From positions 1 to 39,361 of IMG/VR virus record IMGVR_UViG_3300038974_000844: DNA of 39,361 bases; one strand, 5' to 3'. Both the position numbers and the translations under genes were made by a program. Origin of the DNA: a virus. Taxonomy: Duplodnaviria; Caudoviricetes. The notes beneath the pieces were generated by a model. That model saw only the letters and a program-made list of their open reading frames with translations. It did no database searches and had not been told where the DNA came from. This document shows, piece after piece, positions 1 through 23,539 of this stretch. Each line of letters begins with the position of its first letter. Positions within the stretch are counted from its first letter, which is position 1.

Positions 1-568
1 AAGGAGTAAGGAAATTTTCTACGCGGAATAATCTCTCTCTTTCTCCCCATGCAGCGTTTCTCGTGTACATGCTCTGTACTTCAAACCTGCGCAAGCCTGA
101 CGCTGTCTTATAGAAACGAGGGGTAACACAGACTTCAATTTGATCATCTTTGTACGTAGTAATCGGCTTATCTAGCTCAACTTGAGCAGCAACGGCAGCT
201 TCTTTGAGCTGTCTCTCAAGCTCACGAGCCTGACGCTTCTCTTCTTCCATACAATTGATTTCGCCCACGATTGCGTTAATTTCGTTGAGATCAGTAGAAA
301 CGACTTGGTACCTCTCATAGTATGTACTACGAGTAGAATTGGGCACGTATACGCTGTTCCAATCGATGCCAGAGCCTGTAATCCCCCCAGAGTATGTGCT
401 GGAGATCATGCTCCCCTCGTCGTCGATGTACATATAATCATATCTAGGAGTACCGTTAAAAGCTTTGAATGTGTCGTCCCTGACGAGAGCAAGCCGGAAT
501 GTATGCTCTTGTCCTTTTGCATCTAGAACGATAATTGCTACTGTGCTTCCTGCTTCTGGTTTATTCAT
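1..568 (-). CDS. Hypothetical protein, runs off the window edge; paralog of 680..1378
   Basis: Not in the ORF track because it has no stop in the window. Read by hand from ATG 568: MNKPEAGSTVAIIVLDAKGQEHTFRLALVRD...YSGGITGSGI...RVENFLTP, open to base 1. AAGGGG SD-like site upstream. Confidence 0.85.
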   Translation of the reverse strand, partial: MNKPEAGSTVAIIVLDAKGQEHTFRLALVRDDTFKAFNGTPRYDYMYIDDEGSMISSTYSGGITGSGIDWNSVYVPNSTRSTYYERYQVVSTDLNEINAIVGEINCMEEEKRQARELERQLKEAAVAAQVELDKPITTYKDDQIEVCVTPRFYKTASGLRRFEVQSMYTRNAAWGERERLFRVENFLTP

Positions 569-2551: not shown

Positions 2552-2690
2552 ATTGGTAGATTGTATCTCCCTAATATAGTTCACTTTGTGTATAATAAGC
2601 TTTCATCACTCTTCATATATCAAAAGTTGTCCCGAGAGCCTTCATTTAGCATCTTCAGTATGCGTATTTAAATTAGTATACTTATTTATT

Positions 2691-3716
2691 ATGGATAGTA
2701 CTGTTATACAAAATGCAGGTTCTATGCTTGTTGATCTTCTAAGTGGGGATGAAAGCATATTTGATCGGGACGATTTTAGTCAATTAGATCCTCAGCAGAT
2801 ACGCAAAGCTCTAGAGTTTCTTATGAAGCATCCAGATCTAAATGAAGAGCAAAAAATAGCTCTTGCTTCTAATAGCTGGAGAATTAACTACCGCGATAAA
2901 CCACCTACCCCAGATAATTTCATAACAGAAAGGTATCTCGGACCTGTCTCTCAATATACATATGACCGGGTAAAGAAAACGTTTAAAGAATTTATGGATC
3001 CTACCAAGCCATATCGCAACGGAATTCTCTATCCTCACATTGGTTGGGGCAAAAGCTATTTATCCGCCCTGGTAATGATATACATTGGGGTGCATCTTTC
3101 CATGATGAGATCCCCGTATAAGTATTTTGGGCTTAATCCTGCTTCTGTATTAACTCAGCTGCTTGTCTCCTATTCATTGAAGAAGTCTTCGGAATTACTG
3201 TTAGAACCCCTTATAGCTATTTTAGAAAATTCGCCCTTCTTTGAAAAAGTTCACACACGAGAAGGAATGATAAAGAAAGACAGGGACTTTACAAGACAAA
3301 ACCACATAGATAGAATTTACTGGACCACTGCTGTACCTACATCAGCTATTCAGATGTCTAATGGTGCTAATATGAAGACAGCTTCTAACCCAACAGGGTT
3401 GTTAGGTCTAGCCCAGCCACTAGATGCTAAAATACAGCTGCCGGATAACAGCTATACTACGATGGGACAGCTAAAAGTGGGAGATGAAATTAAATCCCCC
3501 ACAGAAGGTGTCCAATTGGTAACGGGAGTGTTTCCGCAGGGAAGTATAGACTGTTATGAAATAGAGCTAGACGATGGAAGAAAAACGCGGTGCTCCGCGA
3601 ATCATTTGTGGAAGGTGGCTTGGGAAAAAGATGAAAGTAATAATTGGATTTGGAGGGTAGTAACAACGCAGTTTATGATAAATAATAGTGAAATCGAATT
3701 CGAGATATACTCTTGA
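2691..3716 (+). CDS. terL: Terminase large subunit, N-terminal part, fused to a split-intein N half
   Basis: Walker A-like PHIGWGKS. Extein ends at GLLGL and is followed by the intein AQPLDAKI...TRCSANHLW. ATG 2691 is the likely start. Confidence 0.85.
   Translation: MDSTVIQNAGSMLVDLLSGDESIFDRDDFSQLDPQQIRKALEFLMKHPDLNEEQKIALASNSWRINYRDKPPTPDNFITERYLGPVSQYTYDRVKKTFKEFMDPTKPYRNGILYPHIGWGKSYLSALVMIYIGVHLSMMRSPYKYFGLNPASVLTQLLVSYSLKKSSELLLEPLIAILENSPFFEKVHTREGMIKKDRDFTRQNHIDRIYWTTAVPTSAIQMSNGANMKTASNPTGLLGLAQPLDAKIQLPDNSYTTMGQLKVGDEIKSPTEGVQLVTGVFPQGSIDCYEIELDDGRKTRCSANHLWKVAWEKDESNNWIWRVVTTQFMINNSEIEFEIYS
3411..3713 (+). mobile_element. Split intein N half (class 3 signature; Ala1, block B HLW)
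   Basis: AQPLDAKIQLPD...MGQLKVGDEI...VTGVFPQG...YEIELDDGRKTRCSANHLWKV; 101 aa, then stop. Confidence 0.9.
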
Positions 3717-4065: not shown

Positions 4066-4176
4066 ATGCCAAAGATTGCAGCTATAAGAAAAGTGGGTAT
4101 TGCTGAACAGCAGTGTATCTCGGTGAGCGGAAAGGATAAGCTGTATATAACAGATGAAGGAATCATAACACACAAT
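4066..4176 (+). mobile_element. Split intein C half (37 aa; Cys in block F, Thr-His-Asn end, +1 Thr)
   Basis: MPKIAAIRKVGIAEQQCISVSGKDKLYITDEGIITHN|T. Confidence 0.92.
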
Positions 4177-5505
4177 ACAGTTGTTTCGGCAACTTTGAGC
4201 GAGTTGGCATTCTTCAAGGACGCAGGGAAGGATGATGCGTTTATTATGAGAGTGTATAATGATGCCAAGAGTCGTGTTGACTCTCGTATGAAGGGCAACT
4301 ACTTCGGCAGAACTATAATTGACTCCTCTCCCAACACTCTTGACTCCCCCATTGATGATTATATTGTAAACTATGCACGAAAGGATCCTACGAATTTTAT
4401 TATCTCAGGAAGTCAATGGGAATGGGCTCCTGAAGACTTTGATATGTCTAAAACATTTAAAGTATATACTGGAGGAAAGGGGCAACCTCCTAAAATATTA
4501 GAGCCAGCTGACGACGAAAATGAATATTCTCCTGAGAGATTAATTGATGTTCCTTTAGAGCTCAAACAATACTTTATTGACGATCTCTATAAGTCATTAA
4601 AAGACCGTGCCGGTATTCCTGCTGGTTCTGCAGATATGCTTATATACGATCACAACAAAATAGAGGCTATCTTTAACCCCAAGCTCAAAAGTATTTACAC
4701 CCACATTAAGGCTACAGAAAATCAAGAAGCATATAGGTTAATATGGAATCAAGTATCTCATATCTTCTTTAAAGAGCGTGCTGGCAAGCTGGAGTTCTGG
4801 TACAAGCCGTGGATACCGCGTTGTATCTCTGTTGACCAATCTATTACTGGCGATGTATCGTGCATAGCTATGACACATGCTGAAAGAATACGTGAAACAG
4901 AAGAGCAAATGTTCGTAGTGGACTTTGTTATACCTATCGCACCGCAAGGAGAGCGTATTAATCTCGATGCTATTAAAATGTTCATCGAAGATTTACGTGA
5001 TGTGGGTAATATGTATATACCCTATGTTTCGTTTGACCAATTCCAGTCTGAGTTATCGTTACAGTATCTTCGTAGCAAGGGATTTGAAGCAGAGAAGTTG
5101 TCTGTAGATGCAACTACCGATCCATACTTCTTCTTGCTTGGGCTTGTTAATAGAGGGCGTATTGTATCAGGTAGGAATCTTTATATAAAAAATAATTTAA
5201 AGGCTCTTAAACTCGTTACCGAGCATAAGAATGGTAAGAACAGGAAAACTAAAGTAGACCATGATGATAGCCGACCGGTAGTTGTTTCAGGTTCATTGGA
5301 TTGGAATAAATCGCTTATCGGAGCATATGCAAAGGATGCTACCGATGCAATTGCTGCTTCGATTGCTCTTAATAGAAAATATTTCCCTGTTGCTACGGAG
5401 TTTTGGGATCCAGCATATCTTGATGTTCTCCTCGATACTTCACGACAAAAAAAGAATGCCGAAGAAAATATCTCGGCATTCTTGGATATGATGGGAGTTG
5501 AATAA
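4066..5505 (+). CDS. terL: Split-intein C half plus terminase large subunit C-terminal part (Walker B and RNase H-like nuclease)
   Basis: Own AAGGA SD. After ITHN the chain reads TVVSATLSELAF (Walker B-like), IIDSSP, ISVDQS..GD, SFDQFQS and KDATDAIA. Confidence 0.88.
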   Translation: MPKIAAIRKVGIAEQQCISVSGKDKLYITDEGIITHNTVVSATLSELAFFKDAGKDDAFIMRVYNDAKSRVDSRMKGNYFGRTIIDSSPNTLDSPIDDYIVNYARKDPTNFIISGSQWEWAPEDFDMSKTFKVYTGGKGQPPKILEPADDENEYSPERLIDVPLELKQYFIDDLYKSLKDRAGIPAGSADMLIYDHNKIEAIFNPKLKSIYTHIKATENQEAYRLIWNQVSHIFFKERAGKLEFWYKPWIPRCISVDQSITGDVSCIAMTHAERIRETEEQMFVVDFVIPIAPQGERINLDAIKMFIEDLRDVGNMYIPYVSFDQFQSELSLQYLRSKGFEAEKLSVDATTDPYFFLLGLVNRGRIVSGRNLYIKNNLKALKLVTEHKNGKNRKTKVDHDDSRPVVVSGSLDWNKSLIGAYAKDATDAIAASIALNRKYFPVATEFWDPAYLDVLLDTSRQKKNAEENISAFLDMMGVE

Positions 5506-17186: not shown

Positions 17187-18206
17187 CTAGGTAATTTCGC
17201 AACTACCTCCAGAGCAAGCAAGCTCACCCATAAGGCTTGTGTCATCTTGCATCTCTACTACCCCAGAAAGATCCACTTCATACAAATGCTTAACAGCTTC
17301 CTCATACTCCTCTTTTGTACACGTTTCAAAGGGAGCTTGAATATGAGATCCGTTGTCATAGGGAAGTACTGCAATGCCATTATAATGCTCGCGGTTTTCC
17401 CACATCCATTGTCCTACTGTATCCCACTCATCATCTTTCACGTTAATAGTGCAGGATACATTATTCTTGTTGATACCCTTCTTATGCCCTGGAACAATCC
17501 AATGTTGATACAGATACTTAACACGCTCCAGAGTATCGATTGCAGACTCGCTTCTTAGAACAGCCCCTTTAGGAGCTTTCATAGGAACTTTAATTACTCC
17601 TGTAGTATTAGGTTTGAAAAAGTCATCTTCAATCAACTCAGGATGCATAATCGAGAGGTATTTATATATTGCTTCGTCCTTTCCAACACGTACACGCCTC
17701 CAGTAATATTCATCATACCAGGCATGTACACCAGACGAGGTACCAAAAATAAGCGATGCTGTACCCGAGGGTTTGAGCACGGTACTTCGGGAGCTAGGAT
17801 TAATACCGAGCAGCTTAGCTACGCGTCTGTTCTCTTTTACTACTACCCTCGCTGCAGAATCGAGATCGTAGTCTTTTAAATGCTCACTAGCAACACCAGT
17901 TAATGATACGCCGATAAGCGCTTCTTTTTCTGTGGTATCTTTCCACTCATCTCTCAGGTAATGAAAATCCGTATAGCTAGATTGCAGAGTGGCTATAAAT
18001 GCAGCTGCTTTAGCGCGTTGCTCAAGATCCTCTTGAGACTCAACAGTTCCAAAATTAATTTCTACGAGATTGCAGAACTGATTAGCGCGCAAAGAAACCT
18101 CTCCGCAATTATGAACCACAATATCATTCGCGTAAAAATTATGATTATCCTCTACGGTAATATCATATACATCTTCTTTATTATCTAAATATTCAATAGT
18201 AAGCAT
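17187..18206 (-). CDS. nrdJ: Split-intein C half plus class II (B12-dependent) ribonucleotide reductase C-terminal part
   Basis: VYDITVEDNHNFYANDIVVHN|CGEVSL...FCNL, TVLKPSGTAS, QAPFE, C-terminal ACSGGSCEI. Confidence 0.95.
   Translation of the reverse strand: MLTIEYLDNKEDVYDITVEDNHNFYANDIVVHNCGEVSLRANQFCNLVEINFGTVESQEDLEQRAKAAAFIATLQSSYTDFHYLRDEWKDTTEKEALIGVSLTGVASEHLKDYDLDSAARVVVKENRRVAKLLGINPSSRSTVLKPSGTASLIFGTSSGVHAWYDEYYWRRVRVGKDEAIYKYLSIMHPELIEDDFFKPNTTGVIKVPMKAPKGAVLRSESAIDTLERVKYLYQHWIVPGHKKGINKNNVSCTINVKDDEWDTVGQWMWENREHYNGIAVLPYDNGSHIQAPFETCTKEEYEEAVKHLYEVDLSGVVEMQDDTSLMGELACSGGSCEIT
18108..18206 (-). mobile_element. Split intein C half (33 aa, +1 Cys)
   Basis: MLTIEYLDNKEDVYDITVEDNHNFYANDIVVHN|C. 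Confidence 0.93.
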
Positions 18207-19231
18207 TCTAACTCCTCTTTATTTGTTTTTTGAAGAAAACCCCAATTTTTAGGTTTCTCTTCAAATGTTAAACAAAAATTATAACCAAGCTCTTCGCATT
18301 GAGGAATGGCCGGTATCAATTTGTTTTTAATATAGTCTTCACCCTGTCGAAAAAAGGTTCCTTTAACTTCCACAACCCAAGGCTTTCCAAACTTATGTAT
18401 AATAAAATCTGGTCTATAGGAACCCCCGTTTGCTGTATCTAATATTAGCTCTTCATAATCCCACACTACTTTTTGTTTTTCAAAGAATTTAATATAATTT
18501 TCCTCATACCCAGAGCGCAATTGAATAAGGGTTAACCCCCTTTTATTGTACTTTAAATCCTTTAATAGGGGCCTTTTATAAAAAGAAGTCCTTCCCGCAG
18601 AATGAGGAATACTGATGGTGTTTAAACCCCACACAAAAAATTTAAACTTTGAAAAATCCTCTGGGTTTAGGTTTTGTATAAATTGTTTGTCAATTTTTCC
18701 AGGATATCTTTTTATGAATCTTTCACGACACTCAGGGGAAAAACCAGCAATCATTCTTAGCAAAACATTAACAACATTGTCTTTCTCTTTGTTTCTGGCA
18801 CTTAACATTTTAGAAAAACTAATATTGACATTTTCAGCATCTACTTTAATTCCTTTATTTTCTAACACTTTTTTTCTAAATTCAAAAGTATTAACTTCTT
18901 TATTGTGCAATTCTCCTTTTTTCATTAAGCCTGTTAAGGGGCTGTCTTCCTGTGATGCCAATTCTTTCATTCTTTTGGAGTGTTGAGGTCTTTTCCTGCA
19001 ATCAGGATTATCACATGCGGGGTATAGAAAAGGTATTCCATTTTTTCTTTCTACCACAGAACGGGGTTTTCCACAGGCACAAAACAAATCATCATACGTT
19101 CTGTCTCTTTTCTTTGTCTTTACATTTCTGCTTGTTAAATACCCCAGTAAAAAAGAAGTATCAACCCCCATCTTTTTACTCAACTCATCAATTTTTTTAA
19201 TAAATTCCTCTGTTATATCTCTTTTGTACAT
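18185..19231 (-). CDS. Free-standing PD-(D/E)xK homing endonuclease between the nrdJ halves
   Basis: RSGYE...WDYE...YRPDF...VEVKG plus an N-terminal Cys cluster (CACGK...CDNPDC). Lys-rich and AT-rich. Likely ATG at 19231. Confidence 0.85.
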   Translation of the reverse strand: MYKRDITEEFIKKIDELSKKMGVDTSFLLGYLTSRNVKTKKRDRTYDDLFCACGKPRSVVERKNGIPFLYPACDNPDCRKRPQHSKRMKELASQEDSPLTGLMKKGELHNKEVNTFEFRKKVLENKGIKVDAENVNISFSKMLSARNKEKDNVVNVLLRMIAGFSPECRERFIKRYPGKIDKQFIQNLNPEDFSKFKFFVWGLNTISIPHSAGRTSFYKRPLLKDLKYNKRGLTLIQLRSGYEENYIKFFEKQKVVWDYEELILDTANGGSYRPDFIIHKFGKPWVVEVKGTFFRQGEDYIKNKLIPAIPQCEELGYNFCLTFEEKPKNWGFLQKTNKEELECLLLNI

Positions 19232-19234
19232 GAC

Positions 19235-19277
19235 CACCAATCCTTGTGTATCTTATTAGTTAGTACAAGGATTGGTG
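19235..19277 (-). promoter_or_regulatory. RBS-sequestering hairpin with a promoter-like motif in its loop
   Basis: CACCAATCCTTGT-ACTAACTAATAAGATAC-ACAAGGATTGGTG-GTC-ATG; perfect 13-bp stem with AAGGA in the 3' arm. Confidence 0.8.
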
Positions 19278-19283
19278 ACAAGT

Positions 19284-20570
19284 TTACTCGTTGATTTCTA
19301 AAACGTCTGTTTCTTTTAAATACCGGGCTTCTACGTATCCCCTATTTTTTGTGAAAATCTTATGATCTGGTGTGCAGGTTACGCTGTTGCCCTTTTCATC
19401 GGTTACTTTCATAAGAGAAGCATTCTTTTTTGTCAGAGCAGCCGCTGTTATTTTCTTGAATTCCTTCTGCCCTGTTTTTTCATTAAAAGATAAAACTTCC
19501 AGCGATTCACCGGATGTAGCTAGTGAAACTACATCTTTCATTTGCATAGTTTCTTCATTGCCATCAAATCTAACTGCGAGCTTCGTGTTGCCGACCACGC
19601 AGGGGTTAGTTCCCCACTCTTCTGAATTACTAAAAAAGATTCCTGGCTCCCCGGATCTGCTTGCTTGAATCTTTTTCCAAAGATCAAAGAACACCTCTTC
19701 GTCAATTTGACTCCGCAACACCATCGCACTATTGTTGGCAAGAGCTCGTTGGGGGTTTAACTCCCACCAATTGCCGAACTTAGACTCAAGCATTTCCGTA
19801 TCATCGAGAGAAAAAAGAGAAATCATTGCTGAGCGGCGTATCCCTCCGCTGAGAACAGCTTCTGCTATATAGCACATAATATCATGAACTTCGATAGGCT
19901 TAAGCTGACAGGCTCTTCCTCGTTCTTGAATAGCATTTTCAAATACAGAAATAATTTTAACAAGACATTCTCGCAGTGGCTCTGGTCCAGGAGCCCTTCC
20001 TCCACTAGTTAGCAGCAATGATCCTTTGGATCTAATATCTCTGAAATCATAATCGATTTCACGCTTATTGTAGAAATAAGACTCTACAAGCACCTTAATA
20101 GCATCTGCCCATCCTTCAATGGAATCGCCAATAAGGTATCGTCTCTTGCGTTGTCTCCCTTCAGGACGCTGCACTCCCAGTACCGGAGGAAGCTTTCGTA
20201 CATGATGTTTTTGTACTGAAAATCCAACCCCCGTCCCGGAAAGCAGCAACTCCATAGCTTCAGAAAAAGCATCAGGATGGTCCATGTGCATAAAGCTACA
20301 GTTATAGATACGGATAGGGTTTAACTCAATTGGCTTACCCGCGAATTGCATACTACGCATAGAAGGTAAGTTCTTTTTATCGTATATAAATTGATATGCA
20401 TCTTCAATTTCTTCCTTCAATTCAGGAAACTTTTTAAGATGCATTGCTTTGTTTCTGTCTACAATTTCTGGCCACAATTCTCTACGCTGCTTATCTGGTA
20501 AATACTTTGCGTATTTCATATAAGCAATGATATCACTAAAAATTTGTGAAGACAAGGGTGGTTCTTTCAT
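19284..20570 (-). CDS. nrdJ: Class II ribonucleotide reductase N-terminal part plus split-intein N half
   Basis: LPSMRSMQFAG, YNCS, GTGVGFSV, GGRAPGPEPL, GGIRRSAMI, SGEPG, TNP|CVVG. Confidence 0.95.
   Translation of the reverse strand: MKEPPLSSQIFSDIIAYMKYAKYLPDKQRRELWPEIVDRNKAMHLKKFPELKEEIEDAYQFIYDKKNLPSMRSMQFAGKPIELNPIRIYNCSFMHMDHPDAFSEAMELLLSGTGVGFSVQKHHVRKLPPVLGVQRPEGRQRKRRYLIGDSIEGWADAIKVLVESYFYNKREIDYDFRDIRSKGSLLLTSGGRAPGPEPLRECLVKIISVFENAIQERGRACQLKPIEVHDIMCYIAEAVLSGGIRRSAMISLFSLDDTEMLESKFGNWWELNPQRALANNSAMVLRSQIDEEVFFDLWKKIQASRSGEPGIFFSNSEEWGTNPCVVGNTKLAVRFDGNEETMQMKDVVSLATSGESLEVLSFNEKTGQKEFKKITAAALTKKNASLMKVTDEKGNSVTCTPDHKIFTKNRGYVEARYLKETDVLEINE
19287..19601 (-). mobile_element. 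Split intein N half (class 1, Cys1, 105 aa)
   Basis: CVVGNTKL...VTCTPDHKIFTKNRGYVEARYLKETDVL. Confidence 0.93.
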
Positions 20571-20698: not shown

Positions 20699-21193
20699 AT
20701 GATAGATGAAAAATTTGATGCGACATTACAACTCATTCAAGACAAAAAAAGAAAGATTTCTTTCTACGAAAAGGAGTTAAAAGCTCTCTTTGAGACTGAG
20801 CTTAAAGAGGATTTTGCGCGTTTTGCTGAACAACTACAAGCATACCATAAAAAATATCATAGCTACTTAGAGCTTCTTAGTAAATATGAAAAGGTTGAAA
20901 AGATCACTCCATTAGATATTTTTCCTGGAATACGTACAGTCAAAAGTATGGCCGATACAGCAGGGATGGAAGAAGATTCTAAGACAATGGAAAAGCTCGC
21001 TAATGATATTAAGCAATTAGAAGCTATACTTGAGCGACGTGAGGGGGATCTTATTAATAATACTAAGCAAGTGTCCCAGATGATTTCAAGTCTCTTATCT
21101 TTGCACGGAGAAGTACAAGAAGCATACCGCCAAATTATGGAGCAGCTAGACTCTGTATATGATATCGGATTCCTGTCTCGTAATAGCAACTAA
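20699..21193 (+). CDS. Hypothetical coiled-coil protein (164 aa)
   Basis: Heptad-rich ORF with GAGG SD. Confidence 0.75.
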   Translation: MIDEKFDATLQLIQDKKRKISFYEKELKALFETELKEDFARFAEQLQAYHKKYHSYLELLSKYEKVEKITPLDIFPGIRTVKSMADTAGMEEDSKTMEKLANDIKQLEAILERREGDLINNTKQVSQMISSLLSLHGEVQEAYRQIMEQLDSVYDIGFLSRNSN

Positions 21194-21396
21194 ACTTCTA
21201 GAGCAAGTGGTGAGCGCTGTTCCCCTGGAATATGCTCAGAATTTCCATACATAATATCCTCAGCGCGAATACAAGCAAATCGTGTAGCAGGCTTGAAAAA
21301 CACACACGAAGAAACATACTCAGAGGAATCCACTACCATATACTTTAGCATACATACTGTATGATTGTCGTGTATGCAGCGTCTACAAATATGCAT
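21190..21396 (-). CDS. Small Cys-rich hypothetical protein
   Basis: CxxC...C...C pattern; directly follows the polymerase, with ACTAATT just upstream of its ATG. Confidence 0.6.
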   Translation of the reverse strand: MHICRRCIHDNHTVCMLKYMVVDSSEYVSSCVFFKPATRFACIRAEDIMYGNSEHIPGEQRSPLALEV

Positions 21397-21402
21397 ACAT
21401 AA

Positions 21403-23475
21403 TTAGTCAACCACAAGTGTATCGTGTTCAGTTAAGTCGCGTGCAAATACATAACCTCTATTAACTGTTTCTACTTGCTGTCCATCTAGAAATGTATGTG
21501 CCTTACCGTCTTGTTCTACTGTGATTTCAGTTATGTCGAATAATCTATTCTTTACAAACACATTATACGCTGTGCGCGTGTGTACATCAGCATCTCTGCG
21601 CGTACGGAATAGATCTGTTAGTGCTGGATCGTCTCCATCAAGAGATGCTAGTCGTAACTGCATTGCTGCATAGTCCACTGTCATGAGATAATACTCGTCT
21701 TCGTTAGGAGGAACAATGCAGGATTTTATATCCTTGGCTACTTTTCCACGCGTAGGCACATTCATGAGATTTGGCTCACGACAGCGTGTTCTTCCGGAAT
21801 CTGTTCCCAGAGGATTGTAATTACCGTGTAAGCGATAGCTGTCATCCTCTGGATGATACTGTAGTAAGCTCGTCCAACCGGTGCCCCCACCAGGAGTCCC
21901 AACAAACGTTTTAAGGAACACGTTCAGTGTTCTCATTTCTTGTATAAGAGCTGCCTCTGAATGAGACTTAGCCCAAAGAGCTAGCTGATCGTCACTACAC
22001 TGATAGTGACCCGCTTTCGTGCGTCCGAGATCCTCCCATCCTTTTTCCTCAAGAAGCTTTCCTAGTTTAGTTGAGGAATCAAAATCAAAAAGTGGGCTTA
22101 CTTCAAAGCTTTCTGACAGCTTTTGCTTTACCTCTGCTATTAATCTAAGAATTTTCTCTCGCGTAGCATTCAACCGTTCCATGCTTACTGGTACGCCATA
22201 GTATTCTATATGAGCATACATATTAGCGGCCGGTATACGAATTGTTTTATAGTAACTTTCTAAGTTATGAGTATATCCTTTTTCATTAGGATATTTCTTA
22301 TCGAGAGAGCGCATGTGCTTAAGCATGCGATGAAATACTCTCCACGTTACTATTGCGTCCATAACAGCATACTCTCGTAATATTTCTTCTGGAATATCTA
22401 GGTAATTATCTATTTTAGTCTTTCTCTTATACTCTTCAAGAGCCCAATCATACCCTCCAAATTCAGAATACAAGTATGCAAGTGTCTTAAGAGAATTAGA
22501 GCGTGTTTCGTCGAGCGTATGTCCCATCATTACAATATCTTCATCTATACGCGCGGCGGTAATGCCTTCATGAAGAAGAAACTTTACGTCAAATTTTAAG
22601 TTTGCTCCCAATTGTATATTTTTCGATAGTATATCATTTAACTTTTCTTTATCTACAGCATCCCAGCGAATATAGTATCCTGTCTTCCCGTCAAAGCTAA
22701 GTGTAATGCATCCGATTTTATCCTGCAAAAAATTAAACCCGCTCGTTTCCAAGTCTTCTGCTAGTAGCTCTCCAGTACGATGTTTATGTTCCTCATAAAA
22801 TGCATCAAATTCTTCTCGCGTGTTAATATATACTTTTGTGATTTGAGGAAAGCGTGGAGGAGGAAATTGTTTATTCCTCACAATAGTCTTGAACTGAAAT
22901 TGAGCAAGCTTAGTCTTAAAGCTGTCGACAGGAGGAGCAGAAAAGCCGTACGCAAATATATCAGTAAAGCTTTCAATCGGAAATATCCAATTACCACGTG
23001 GGTGATCGAGATTTGTACCGTAGCATACATCGCGTGAGAACCAAAACTGCGATACCCCAAAAATGCGCTGATGAGTATAATCAGGGTATACATCATCACT
23101 CATAGTAACCGCATAGAGCGCTGCTCCTGCAGTAATAAGAATTGCGTTTTCAGGAACTTCATTCCAAAAATCAGATGCGTTATTACGATAAAAGTCTACA
23201 AGGCCACTCTTCTGCTCTTGCTTAATCTGCTCTTTCGTAGCAATACAATTTAATGCTGTTACAATCTTGTATCGCGTAATACGATTAGCTTCCAAAAATG
23301 TACGAATAGACTTAATCTGATACTCGTTATAGTATTGATCGGCAAGCACGACAACTGGCTGAGAATAGCTAGCATATGCACGGGATTGATCGACGAGCAC
23401 GATAGTGTCGATTGTCCTGAGATTGATTACATGCTTCTTTGAAGCTACATTTATTTTACCGAATGCGAATGCCAT
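21403..23475 (-). CDS. polA: Family A DNA polymerase, N-terminal chain only (UDG-like domain, 3'-5' exonuclease, through motif A)
   Basis: ExoI DLETSG, ExoII NLKFD, ExoIII YAVMDA, TDSGRTRCREPNLMNVP, motif A VDYAAMQLR, DVH. Motifs B and C are absent. Likely start is MAFAFG at 23475. Confidence 0.92.
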   Translation of the reverse strand: MAFAFGKINVASKKHVINLRTIDTIVLVDQSRAYASYSQPVVVLADQYYNEYQIKSIRTFLEANRITRYKIVTALNCIATKEQIKQEQKSGLVDFYRNNASDFWNEVPENAILITAGAALYAVTMSDDVYPDYTHQRIFGVSQFWFSRDVCYGTNLDHPRGNWIFPIESFTDIFAYGFSAPPVDSFKTKLAQFQFKTIVRNKQFPPPRFPQITKVYINTREEFDAFYEEHKHRTGELLAEDLETSGFNFLQDKIGCITLSFDGKTGYYIRWDAVDKEKLNDILSKNIQLGANLKFDVKFLLHEGITAARIDEDIVMMGHTLDETRSNSLKTLAYLYSEFGGYDWALEEYKRKTKIDNYLDIPEEILREYAVMDAIVTWRVFHRMLKHMRSLDKKYPNEKGYTHNLESYYKTIRIPAANMYAHIEYYGVPVSMERLNATREKILRLIAEVKQKLSESFEVSPLFDFDSSTKLGKLLEEKGWEDLGRTKAGHYQCSDDQLALWAKSHSEAALIQEMRTLNVFLKTFVGTPGGGTGWTSLLQYHPEDDSYRLHGNYNPLGTDSGRTRCREPNLMNVPTRGKVAKDIKSCIVPPNEDEYYLMTVDYAAMQLRLASLDGDDPALTDLFRTRRDADVHTRTAYNVFVKNRLFDITEITVEQDGKAHTFLDGQQVETVNRGYVFARDLTEHDTLVVD

Positions 23476-23539
23476 ATGAATAATATACGCAGAAATGCAC
23501 AAAAGTTGTAGAGGAAAAAACATGTGTTTAACAGTGAAA

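Follow-up and report, generated by a model that had tools for sequence, protein, structure and literature searches.

A half-Hint tail on a split viral family A DNA polymerase, a likely docking module

The polymerase chain in the window and its tail

The window is the whole viral record, which is 39,361 nt long and estimated to be 22% complete. One minus-strand ORF was identified as a family A polymerase (PolA), with a Pfam 3'–5' exonuclease domain at residues 232–404. It covers just positions 2–198 of the 381-position PolA model. After motif A, the chain continues through DVH (the DxH motif) into a half-Hint tail of about 47–50 aa and then reaches a stop codon (Table 1). The segment listed as motif A is named after the corresponding motif of family A polymerases. 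A previous sequence-only reading had described a PolA chain that stops after motif A and DVH without motifs B and C, and the ORF indeed reads so. That reading had also noted that the window holds no C-terminal polymerase chain, and we found no motif B/C chain within the 39,361 nt. The chain is 706 aa long from the first ATG and 690 aa long from the second Met at 23475. The latter is the likelier start and gives protein P0003, which is also encoded on a 133-kb contig.

The stop codon ending the tail is genuine. It was bridged without an InDel by contigs X3, X4 and X6 from three other public runs, and among the 40 of 83 differences to these contigs that were listed, none fell in the tail. No RNA dataset was listed among the holders of the sequence. 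A 68-aa ORF directly after the tail (21190–21396, minus strand) is without a Pfam match, is unlike the C chain of relatives and is probably spurious.

Table 1. Features of the PolA N-terminal chain and of the intein used for comparison (window coordinates).
Feature	Position	Strand	Basis or remark
PolA N-terminal chain: N-terminal domain, 3'–5' exonuclease, thumb, motif A, DxH helix, half-Hint tail	21403..23523	-	
3'–5' exonuclease domain	22312..22830	-	Pfam; the second insertion site (exonuclease site) is unoccupied, near 22572
Polymerase motif A (first catalytic Asp)	21649..21687	-	Sequence
DxH motif, where the final host helix ahead of the insert begins	21580..21588	-	Conserved in homologue alignments
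Half-Hint tail (putative N2 lobe of an N-intein), net charge -6, ends in the stop codon	21403..21555	-	
LDGQ, at the place of block B TxxH	21478..21489	-	
NrdJ N-part with intact class 1 N-intein	19284..20570	-	Comparison, outside the module

The tail had been said to align with the end of the N-intein of the window's own NrdJ, and this was confirmed. Two-sequence BLASTP of the tail against this N-intein gave no match. In a local alignment, the score was above those of 5000 of 5000 shuffles, and the LDGQ of the tail was in register with TPDH of the N-intein. When a tail profile was run against 9239 ORFs, the NrdJ N-intein was the top hit among true inteins (E 9e-5). Against PDB sequences, the profile had one significant match only, the NrdJ-1 intein (E 2e-4). 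Against 1.84 billion representatives, it returned 37 proteins, mostly polymerase tails or their fragments. Four other carriers and five true inteins or intein fragments were among the 37, and a few long repetitive proteins were taken as noise. Pfam identified no intein family on 24 tails.

The structure model of the tail had a pLDDT of 89. The first 25 of its 29 structural matches were Hint domains with modest Z scores, and the best was to Npu DnaE residues 46–97 (Z 5.3, rmsd 4.4, 50 aligned). According to the model, the tail therefore keeps a Hint structure, as had been proposed. A natural one-chain module that includes the extra strand (from the fused L007) was modelled with a pLDDT of 95. 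Its first 27 structural matches were Hint (best Z 9.6, rmsd 2.0, 61 aligned; best non-Hint Z 3.7), and the best match covers 78..429 of PI-PfuI, thereby bridging the place of its endonuclease. Neither model had a Foldseek match at E ≤0.001. A structure-based cluster search returned viral reductase and Hint clusters below the naming bar, and a feature-based search returned one uninformative match under 0.9. The Hint fold is made of two pseudo-symmetric subdomains (PMC7664689). Since the L007 module is modelled as a half-Hint bridging the endonuclease position, the tail and the N-terminal head of the second chain together equal one pseudo-symmetric half of the fold. Sequence and model both identify the tail as N2, the second lobe of a Hint domain.

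The residues needed for splicing were consistently replaced or missing. Block A is absent, as previously claimed: the tail model begins at about Npu residue 46, and a Cys within the first 8 residues was found in none of 41 tails. The loss of Thr and His from the TxxH position, where the window has LDGQ, was likewise found to be general. The block B Thr was exchanged in 41 of 41 tails (Leu 33, Tyr 6, Phe 2) and so was the block B His (Gln 21, Glu 19, Asn 1). A block G motif (blocks F/G; His-Asn followed by Cys/Ser/Thr at +1) was present in 0 of 45 C-chain heads of relatives. These sequences agree with the earlier statement that splicing by the standard mechanism is impossible, and they support the broader prediction that the tail is unable to splice by any known intein class.

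The second chain and the module in relatives

A motif B/C gene with a complementary N-terminus had been proposed as something to look for. It was found in relatives, as a separate chain with a complementary basic strand at its N-terminus. The tail stood at the C-terminus in 22 of 23 homologues (the window's own protein excluded), and the remaining one, the fused P0023 (1057 aa), runs on into motifs B and C. A query with the P0023 continuation gave 44 shorter proteins. In total, 45 C chains (36 of these 44 plus nine read from loci) begin with about 10 residues of the form M-x-K-I-T-K/R-R-T-E, followed by host sequence. This head is one basic IntC-like strand, like the first strand of a C-intein. 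Net charge was negative in 38 of 41 tails and positive in 43 of 44 heads. In Npu DnaE, the N2 lobe is described as the charged capture part, bearing the opposite charges (PMC11923092). Both split-intein features, opposite charges and a break at the endonuclease position, are present in the PolA pair. The break in the gene lies in the fingers loop, after the DxH helix and ahead of motif B, and it divides the polymerase active site. The split adds an acidic N2 lobe of ~47 aa to the N chain and, in relatives, a basic strand of ~10 aa to the C chain.

Of 12 records holding a tailed N chain, 10 also held a C chain. Two of the 10 nearly duplicate others, and seven were retrieved via the C chain. Of the five records retrieved via the N chain, three carried the C chain, and both misses were 20–22% complete. 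The gap between the two genes was 1 base in L085, 4 bases in L084 and 2.5–4 kb in L082, L001, L087 and L081. In G002 and G006, the C-chain gene is found upstream at a distance of about 31 and 38 kb, respectively; on the corresponding side, the window extends over 15.8 kb. As the C-chain gene can be 1 base to 38 kb away in relatives, its absence from a 22%-complete window is expected. Nuclease-like ORFs lie between the N and C genes in L081, L082 and L087. None was found there in L084 and L085, and no nuclease gene adjoins the tail in the window. Single-protein locus searches of viral contigs with P0001 and P0092 returned nothing, nor did the C-chain profile in prokaryote genomes. Cultured phages gave distant PolA only and no tail match.

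Most C chains are open frames. At L087 10124–10138 and L090 217–228 (plus strand), motif B of the C-chain gene is broken by an in-frame stop and extra codons between two Leu codons, a candidate for a short translational hop. The database proteins P0040, P0229, P0066 and P0230 begin downstream of this position, in keeping with other assemblies having the stop too. The L087/L090 site showed no unusual RNA folding, and a search for the pattern gave 12 loci, none of which encodes a C chain.

Mean identity to the window's protein (32 proteins) was 0.49 for the tail, 0.49 for the preceding 200 residues and 0.46 for the first 200 residues, and the apparent conservation of the tail is inflated because most homologues were found with tail-containing queries. 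Among L081, L084, L085 and L087, the tail had a dN of 0.14–0.29 vs a dS of 1.0–2.6 (saturation affected one of the six pairs). Close pairs had a higher dN in the tail than in the core (0.27 vs 0.076 for L081/L085). The substitution rates support the view that the tail is kept under purifying selection.

In a tree of 39 rows, 25 module-bearing rows and 14 others were on opposite sides of one branch (SH-aLRT 99.8). P0023 nested among split relatives with a support of 100 and is accordingly regarded as a re-fusion. The module was present in three fused proteins, P0023, P0113 and P0175. Six rows, including all four bacterial outgroups, were left out; the trees are thus unrooted, and for P0113 and P0175 they are compatible with either order, cis first or split first. 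Beyond the main clade, P0127, P0188, P0161 and L002 have shorter inserts in this fingers loop. The tail at the end of P0188 is truncated, and P0127 branches within empty alleles, which points to an independent insertion or to transfer.

We surveyed 72 related proteins (P0109–P0180) at the fingers loop. Sixty-eight were without an insert, two had the whole module in one chain and two had shorter inserts. An intact intein at the loop was found in 0 of 72, so the in-place decay of an intact intein, which the sequence-only reading had implied, is probably wrong. The residue after the insertion point was variable, with Cys/Ser/Thr in 24 of 66 related alleles. True inteins were found at three other sites of the PolA family: in motif B (five proteins), in exonuclease motif II (two) and before motif A. 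P0170 and P0177–P0180 hold intact contiguous and split inteins in motif B, and in P0177 the last intein residue is Gln, with Ser following it.

In L087, the exonuclease domain is interrupted by another copy of the module (26 bits, 0 of 1000 shuffles), and in L001 by a more diverged one (3.8 bits, 8 of 1000 shuffles). In both, an ORF with DUF7487 lies between the parts; these ORFs appear nuclease-like, based on DUF7487 and on a PD-(D/E)xK-like motif by our own reading. The site is empty in L082, which has 94% DNA identity to L001 on both sides. Occupied and empty alleles with a nuclease-like gene inside were seen for the exonuclease site only (L001 vs L082; L087). With the exonuclease-site and fingers-site splits combined, PolA is in three pieces in L001 (7620–15473) and L087 (2413–10975). 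P0015, P0016, P0076 and P0084 begin as the downstream part of the exonuclease split. Fused alleles tend to lose the exonuclease-site insert, leaving scars of 17–18 aa, which were found in four proteins.

Outside the polymerase, the module ends the UvsW helicase N-part P0092 and also P0090, which is without a Pfam match and which we read as a radical-SAM-like N-part. In P0098 (NrdA), the module follows the intein after block F, and the intein itself appears to be cut there by a half-Hint tail. These three carriers are single-member clusters known without gene context. A P0098 query gave three loci, all with intein-free NrdA, and hence no context for this carrier. Against the tail profile, the truncated unit at other sites scored 26–44 bits vs 1–28 bits for most true inteins; three of these carriers were found by that same profile.

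Probable docking and the alternatives to it

We consider it likely that the tail is a splicing-dead half-Hint that acts as a non-covalent docking module and holds the N chain to the separate motif B/C chain, and that it is a portable unit and not an intein that died in place. The basic head strand and the acidic lobe would pair as split-intein halves do in their charge-driven 'capture' step. This pairing would make and break no bond, and motif A of the N chain and motifs B and C of the C chain would form one active site. As to the origin, a portable cassette may have arisen from a fractured split-intein locus, of which it would comprise the inner segment (lobe and stop, nuclease gene, start and strand). 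Such a cassette would land in tolerant loops near the nuclease target, 8–30 residues from conserved motifs. The tail likely arrived in this form together with a nuclease gene. At the window's PolA, the nuclease gene would since have been lost, and the two genes would have drifted apart.

Complex prediction lent weak support. The L082 tail with the first 32 residues of its C chain scored 0.43 vs 0.02 for the best of three controls. The runs agreed in at least 88% of contacts, and the pLDDT of the partner was 64–65. Of 157 solved pairs, 116 attained the mark used, as did 2 of 215 mismatched ones, and passes at 0.60 or under comprised 18 solved pairs and both mismatched pairs. The L082 pass may stem from likeness to solved split inteins. 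Docking of tail and head is weakly predicted for this relative's pair, and the docking claim therefore rests mainly on anatomy, charge and conservation. The earlier proposal of a docking domain is upheld in part: the Hint fold, the inability to splice, selection and the complementary strand on the C chain of relatives speak for it; that the tail is needed for assembly would be a further step, for which the prediction is weak and concerns a relative's pair. Several observations stand against docking. The fused P0023, P0113 and P0175 keep the module though docking is not needed there, and the window's own C-chain gene was not seen in the 22%-complete record. In Aeh1 NrdA, the nearest case studied by experiment, the two fragments bind without their tails, which activity does require (PMC3045599). 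The faster change of the tail than of the core in close pairs, its inflated conservation, the lack of a nuclease gene beside it in the window and the context-free non-polymerase carriers also count against the reading.

The retention in fused proteins would also fit chains that meet via the polymerase core, with the half-Hint pair serving folding, solubility, fingers geometry or another replisome part instead of capture. The Aeh1 tails are a precedent: they are dispensable for the heterodimer, yet alter shape and activity (PMC3045599). We regard this as unlikely, given the opposite charges of tails (38 of 41) and heads (43 of 44), a head that is exactly the strand completing the fold and the tendency of fused alleles to lose the exonuclease-site insert (17–18 aa scars in four proteins).

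No more probable is a different origin with the same docking role, in which a splicing split intein once sat at the fingers loop and lost both ends in place. It would explain the sequence kinship of the tail to true N-inteins, and it agrees with Cys/Ser/Thr at about +1 in 24 of 66 related alleles and with a PolA family bearing true inteins at three other sites. However, none of the 72 related proteins has an intact intein at this loop, the insertion site is a variable loop, and both ends must go together. Moreover, the truncated unit recurs elsewhere with 26–44 bits vs 1–28 for most true inteins (three carriers being profile-found). Decay in place of the family's motif B intein was rejected, as the motif B site is about 25–30 residues downstream.

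Covalent joining of the chains, by a three-piece intein, by a borrowed NrdJ or terminase C-intein or at the RNA level, is highly improbable despite two intact-looking split inteins in the window and despite the genes lying 4 and 1 bases apart in L084 and L085. There is no junction nucleophile (Cys in the first 8 residues in 0 of 41) and no block B His, and the C chain is without Asn/+1. The NrdJ halves have the opposite charge pattern (C-part -7), and the PolA genes are up to 38 kb apart, with no joint in DNA contigs. Even less credible is a truncated pseudogene or assembly error with an inert tail: the C chain is absent from the window, but the stop was confirmed by independent contigs, 22 of 23 homologues end alike, the tail is under purifying selection, and in two relatives the partner is 31–38 kb upstream, compared with 15.8 kb available in a 22%-complete record.

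Comparison with known systems

The MobA element of T4 splits topoisomerase II into gp39 and gp60 (10.1101/2022.08.31.505936; structure PMC11461880). As in PolA, an essential gene is interrupted by a nuclease cassette and gains a C-terminal (~44 aa in T4) and an N-terminal extension, the extensions persist once the nuclease is gone, and secondary fusion occurs. In T4, the insert projects from the enzyme and has been proposed to help in its assembly (PMC11461880/10.1101/2022.08.31.505936). The MobA element proper is further marked by a translational bypass in the downstream gene; among the C chains of PolA, L087 and L090 have the candidate stops for a hop, and most others are open frames. In the available text of both sources, the extension is termed 'unique' and is not tied to Hint, whereas a Hint origin is detectable for the PolA tail. 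PolA also differs from the T4 case in the host gene, in an old split and in genes up to 38 kb apart. The tail profile gave 1.5 bits against the gp39 extension (116 of 1000 shuffles were as high). By structure, the T4 piece was at Foldseek rank 3 (E 1.5), and in a separate structural comparison it matched with Z 2.6 (rmsd 3.5, 48 aligned).

In Aeh1, nrdA-a / mobE / nrdA-b encode fragments that both carry non-splicing, oppositely charged, unprocessed tails (Crona et al., PMC3045599). These tails are not needed for fragment binding but are needed for activity, and the authors suggest that they could be degenerate split-intein remnants (PMC3045599). They are described as short and without a database match (PMC3045599), and their charges are reversed relative to the PolA pair. 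We found no similarity between them and the PolA tail (709 of 1000 shuffles as high). The MobA/MobE-type traits of extensions on both cut ends, retention after nuclease loss and secondary fusions are all present in PolA.

Fractured genes combine a split intein with a free-standing endonuclease (Dassa et al., PMC2677866). Like PolA, they are broken between N4 and C2, where the endonuclease would sit, and have complementary charges, later nuclease loss and separated genes (PMC2677866). However, the inteins of Dassa et al. keep the catalytic blocks and splice (PMC2677866), while the PolA module keeps the inner half only. In S-SBP1-like phages, a family A polymerase is made from two genes (Czernecki et al., PMC10201439). 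There, the split lies between the exonuclease and polymerase domains and leaves free new termini (PMC10201439), whereas the PolA cut lies inside the active site. The word 'intein' has 0 occurrences in the accessible text of that paper (PMC10201439).

By analogy, the best reading is that the half-Hint module functions like the T4 MobA extensions and the Aeh1 MobE tails; it is not a split intein. In the literature searched, which covered few subscription journals, no description of Hint-derived non-splicing tails on a polymerase was found. The tail would surprise an intein specialist, although functional precedents are known. It offers sequence and fold evidence for what Crona et al. suggested, a descent from split inteins of the assembly tails found on nuclease-split genes. 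The active site of an essential polymerase would have been shared by two chains (three in some relatives) over a long evolutionary span. Annotators would otherwise label such genes truncated. With ~57 residues, the natural candidate docking pair lends itself to testing and may be of use where proteins are to be split.

More tentatively, half-Hint modules may form a family of 'split-and-dock' elements that are portable and do not splice. Next to introns and inteins, they would give nuclease genes a third means of residing inside essential genes. One lineage would have cut the polymerase twice (three chains in L001 and L087); its other targets would be the UvsW helicase, a radical-SAM-like protein and also an intein. 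The T4 MobA tails would be distant members, and some copies would add the motif B stop-hop.

Two further loci of the window touch on inteins. NrdJ (17187–20570, minus strand) is fractured: it holds a class 1 split intein that looks intact and, between the halves, an endonuclease-like ORF of 351 aa (18185–19240; weak Phage_endo_I match). This locus is of the fractured-gene kind of Dassa et al. (PMC2677866). Its C-intein is acidic, the reverse of the PolA pair. A terminase-like gene in two parts (2586–3716 and 4066–5505, plus strand) is without a Pfam or NCBIfam match. It reads as holding a split class 3 intein, with Ala at position 1, Trp/Cys/Thr at the WCT positions and an end of HN/T; a solved class 3 split intein exists (6zgq).
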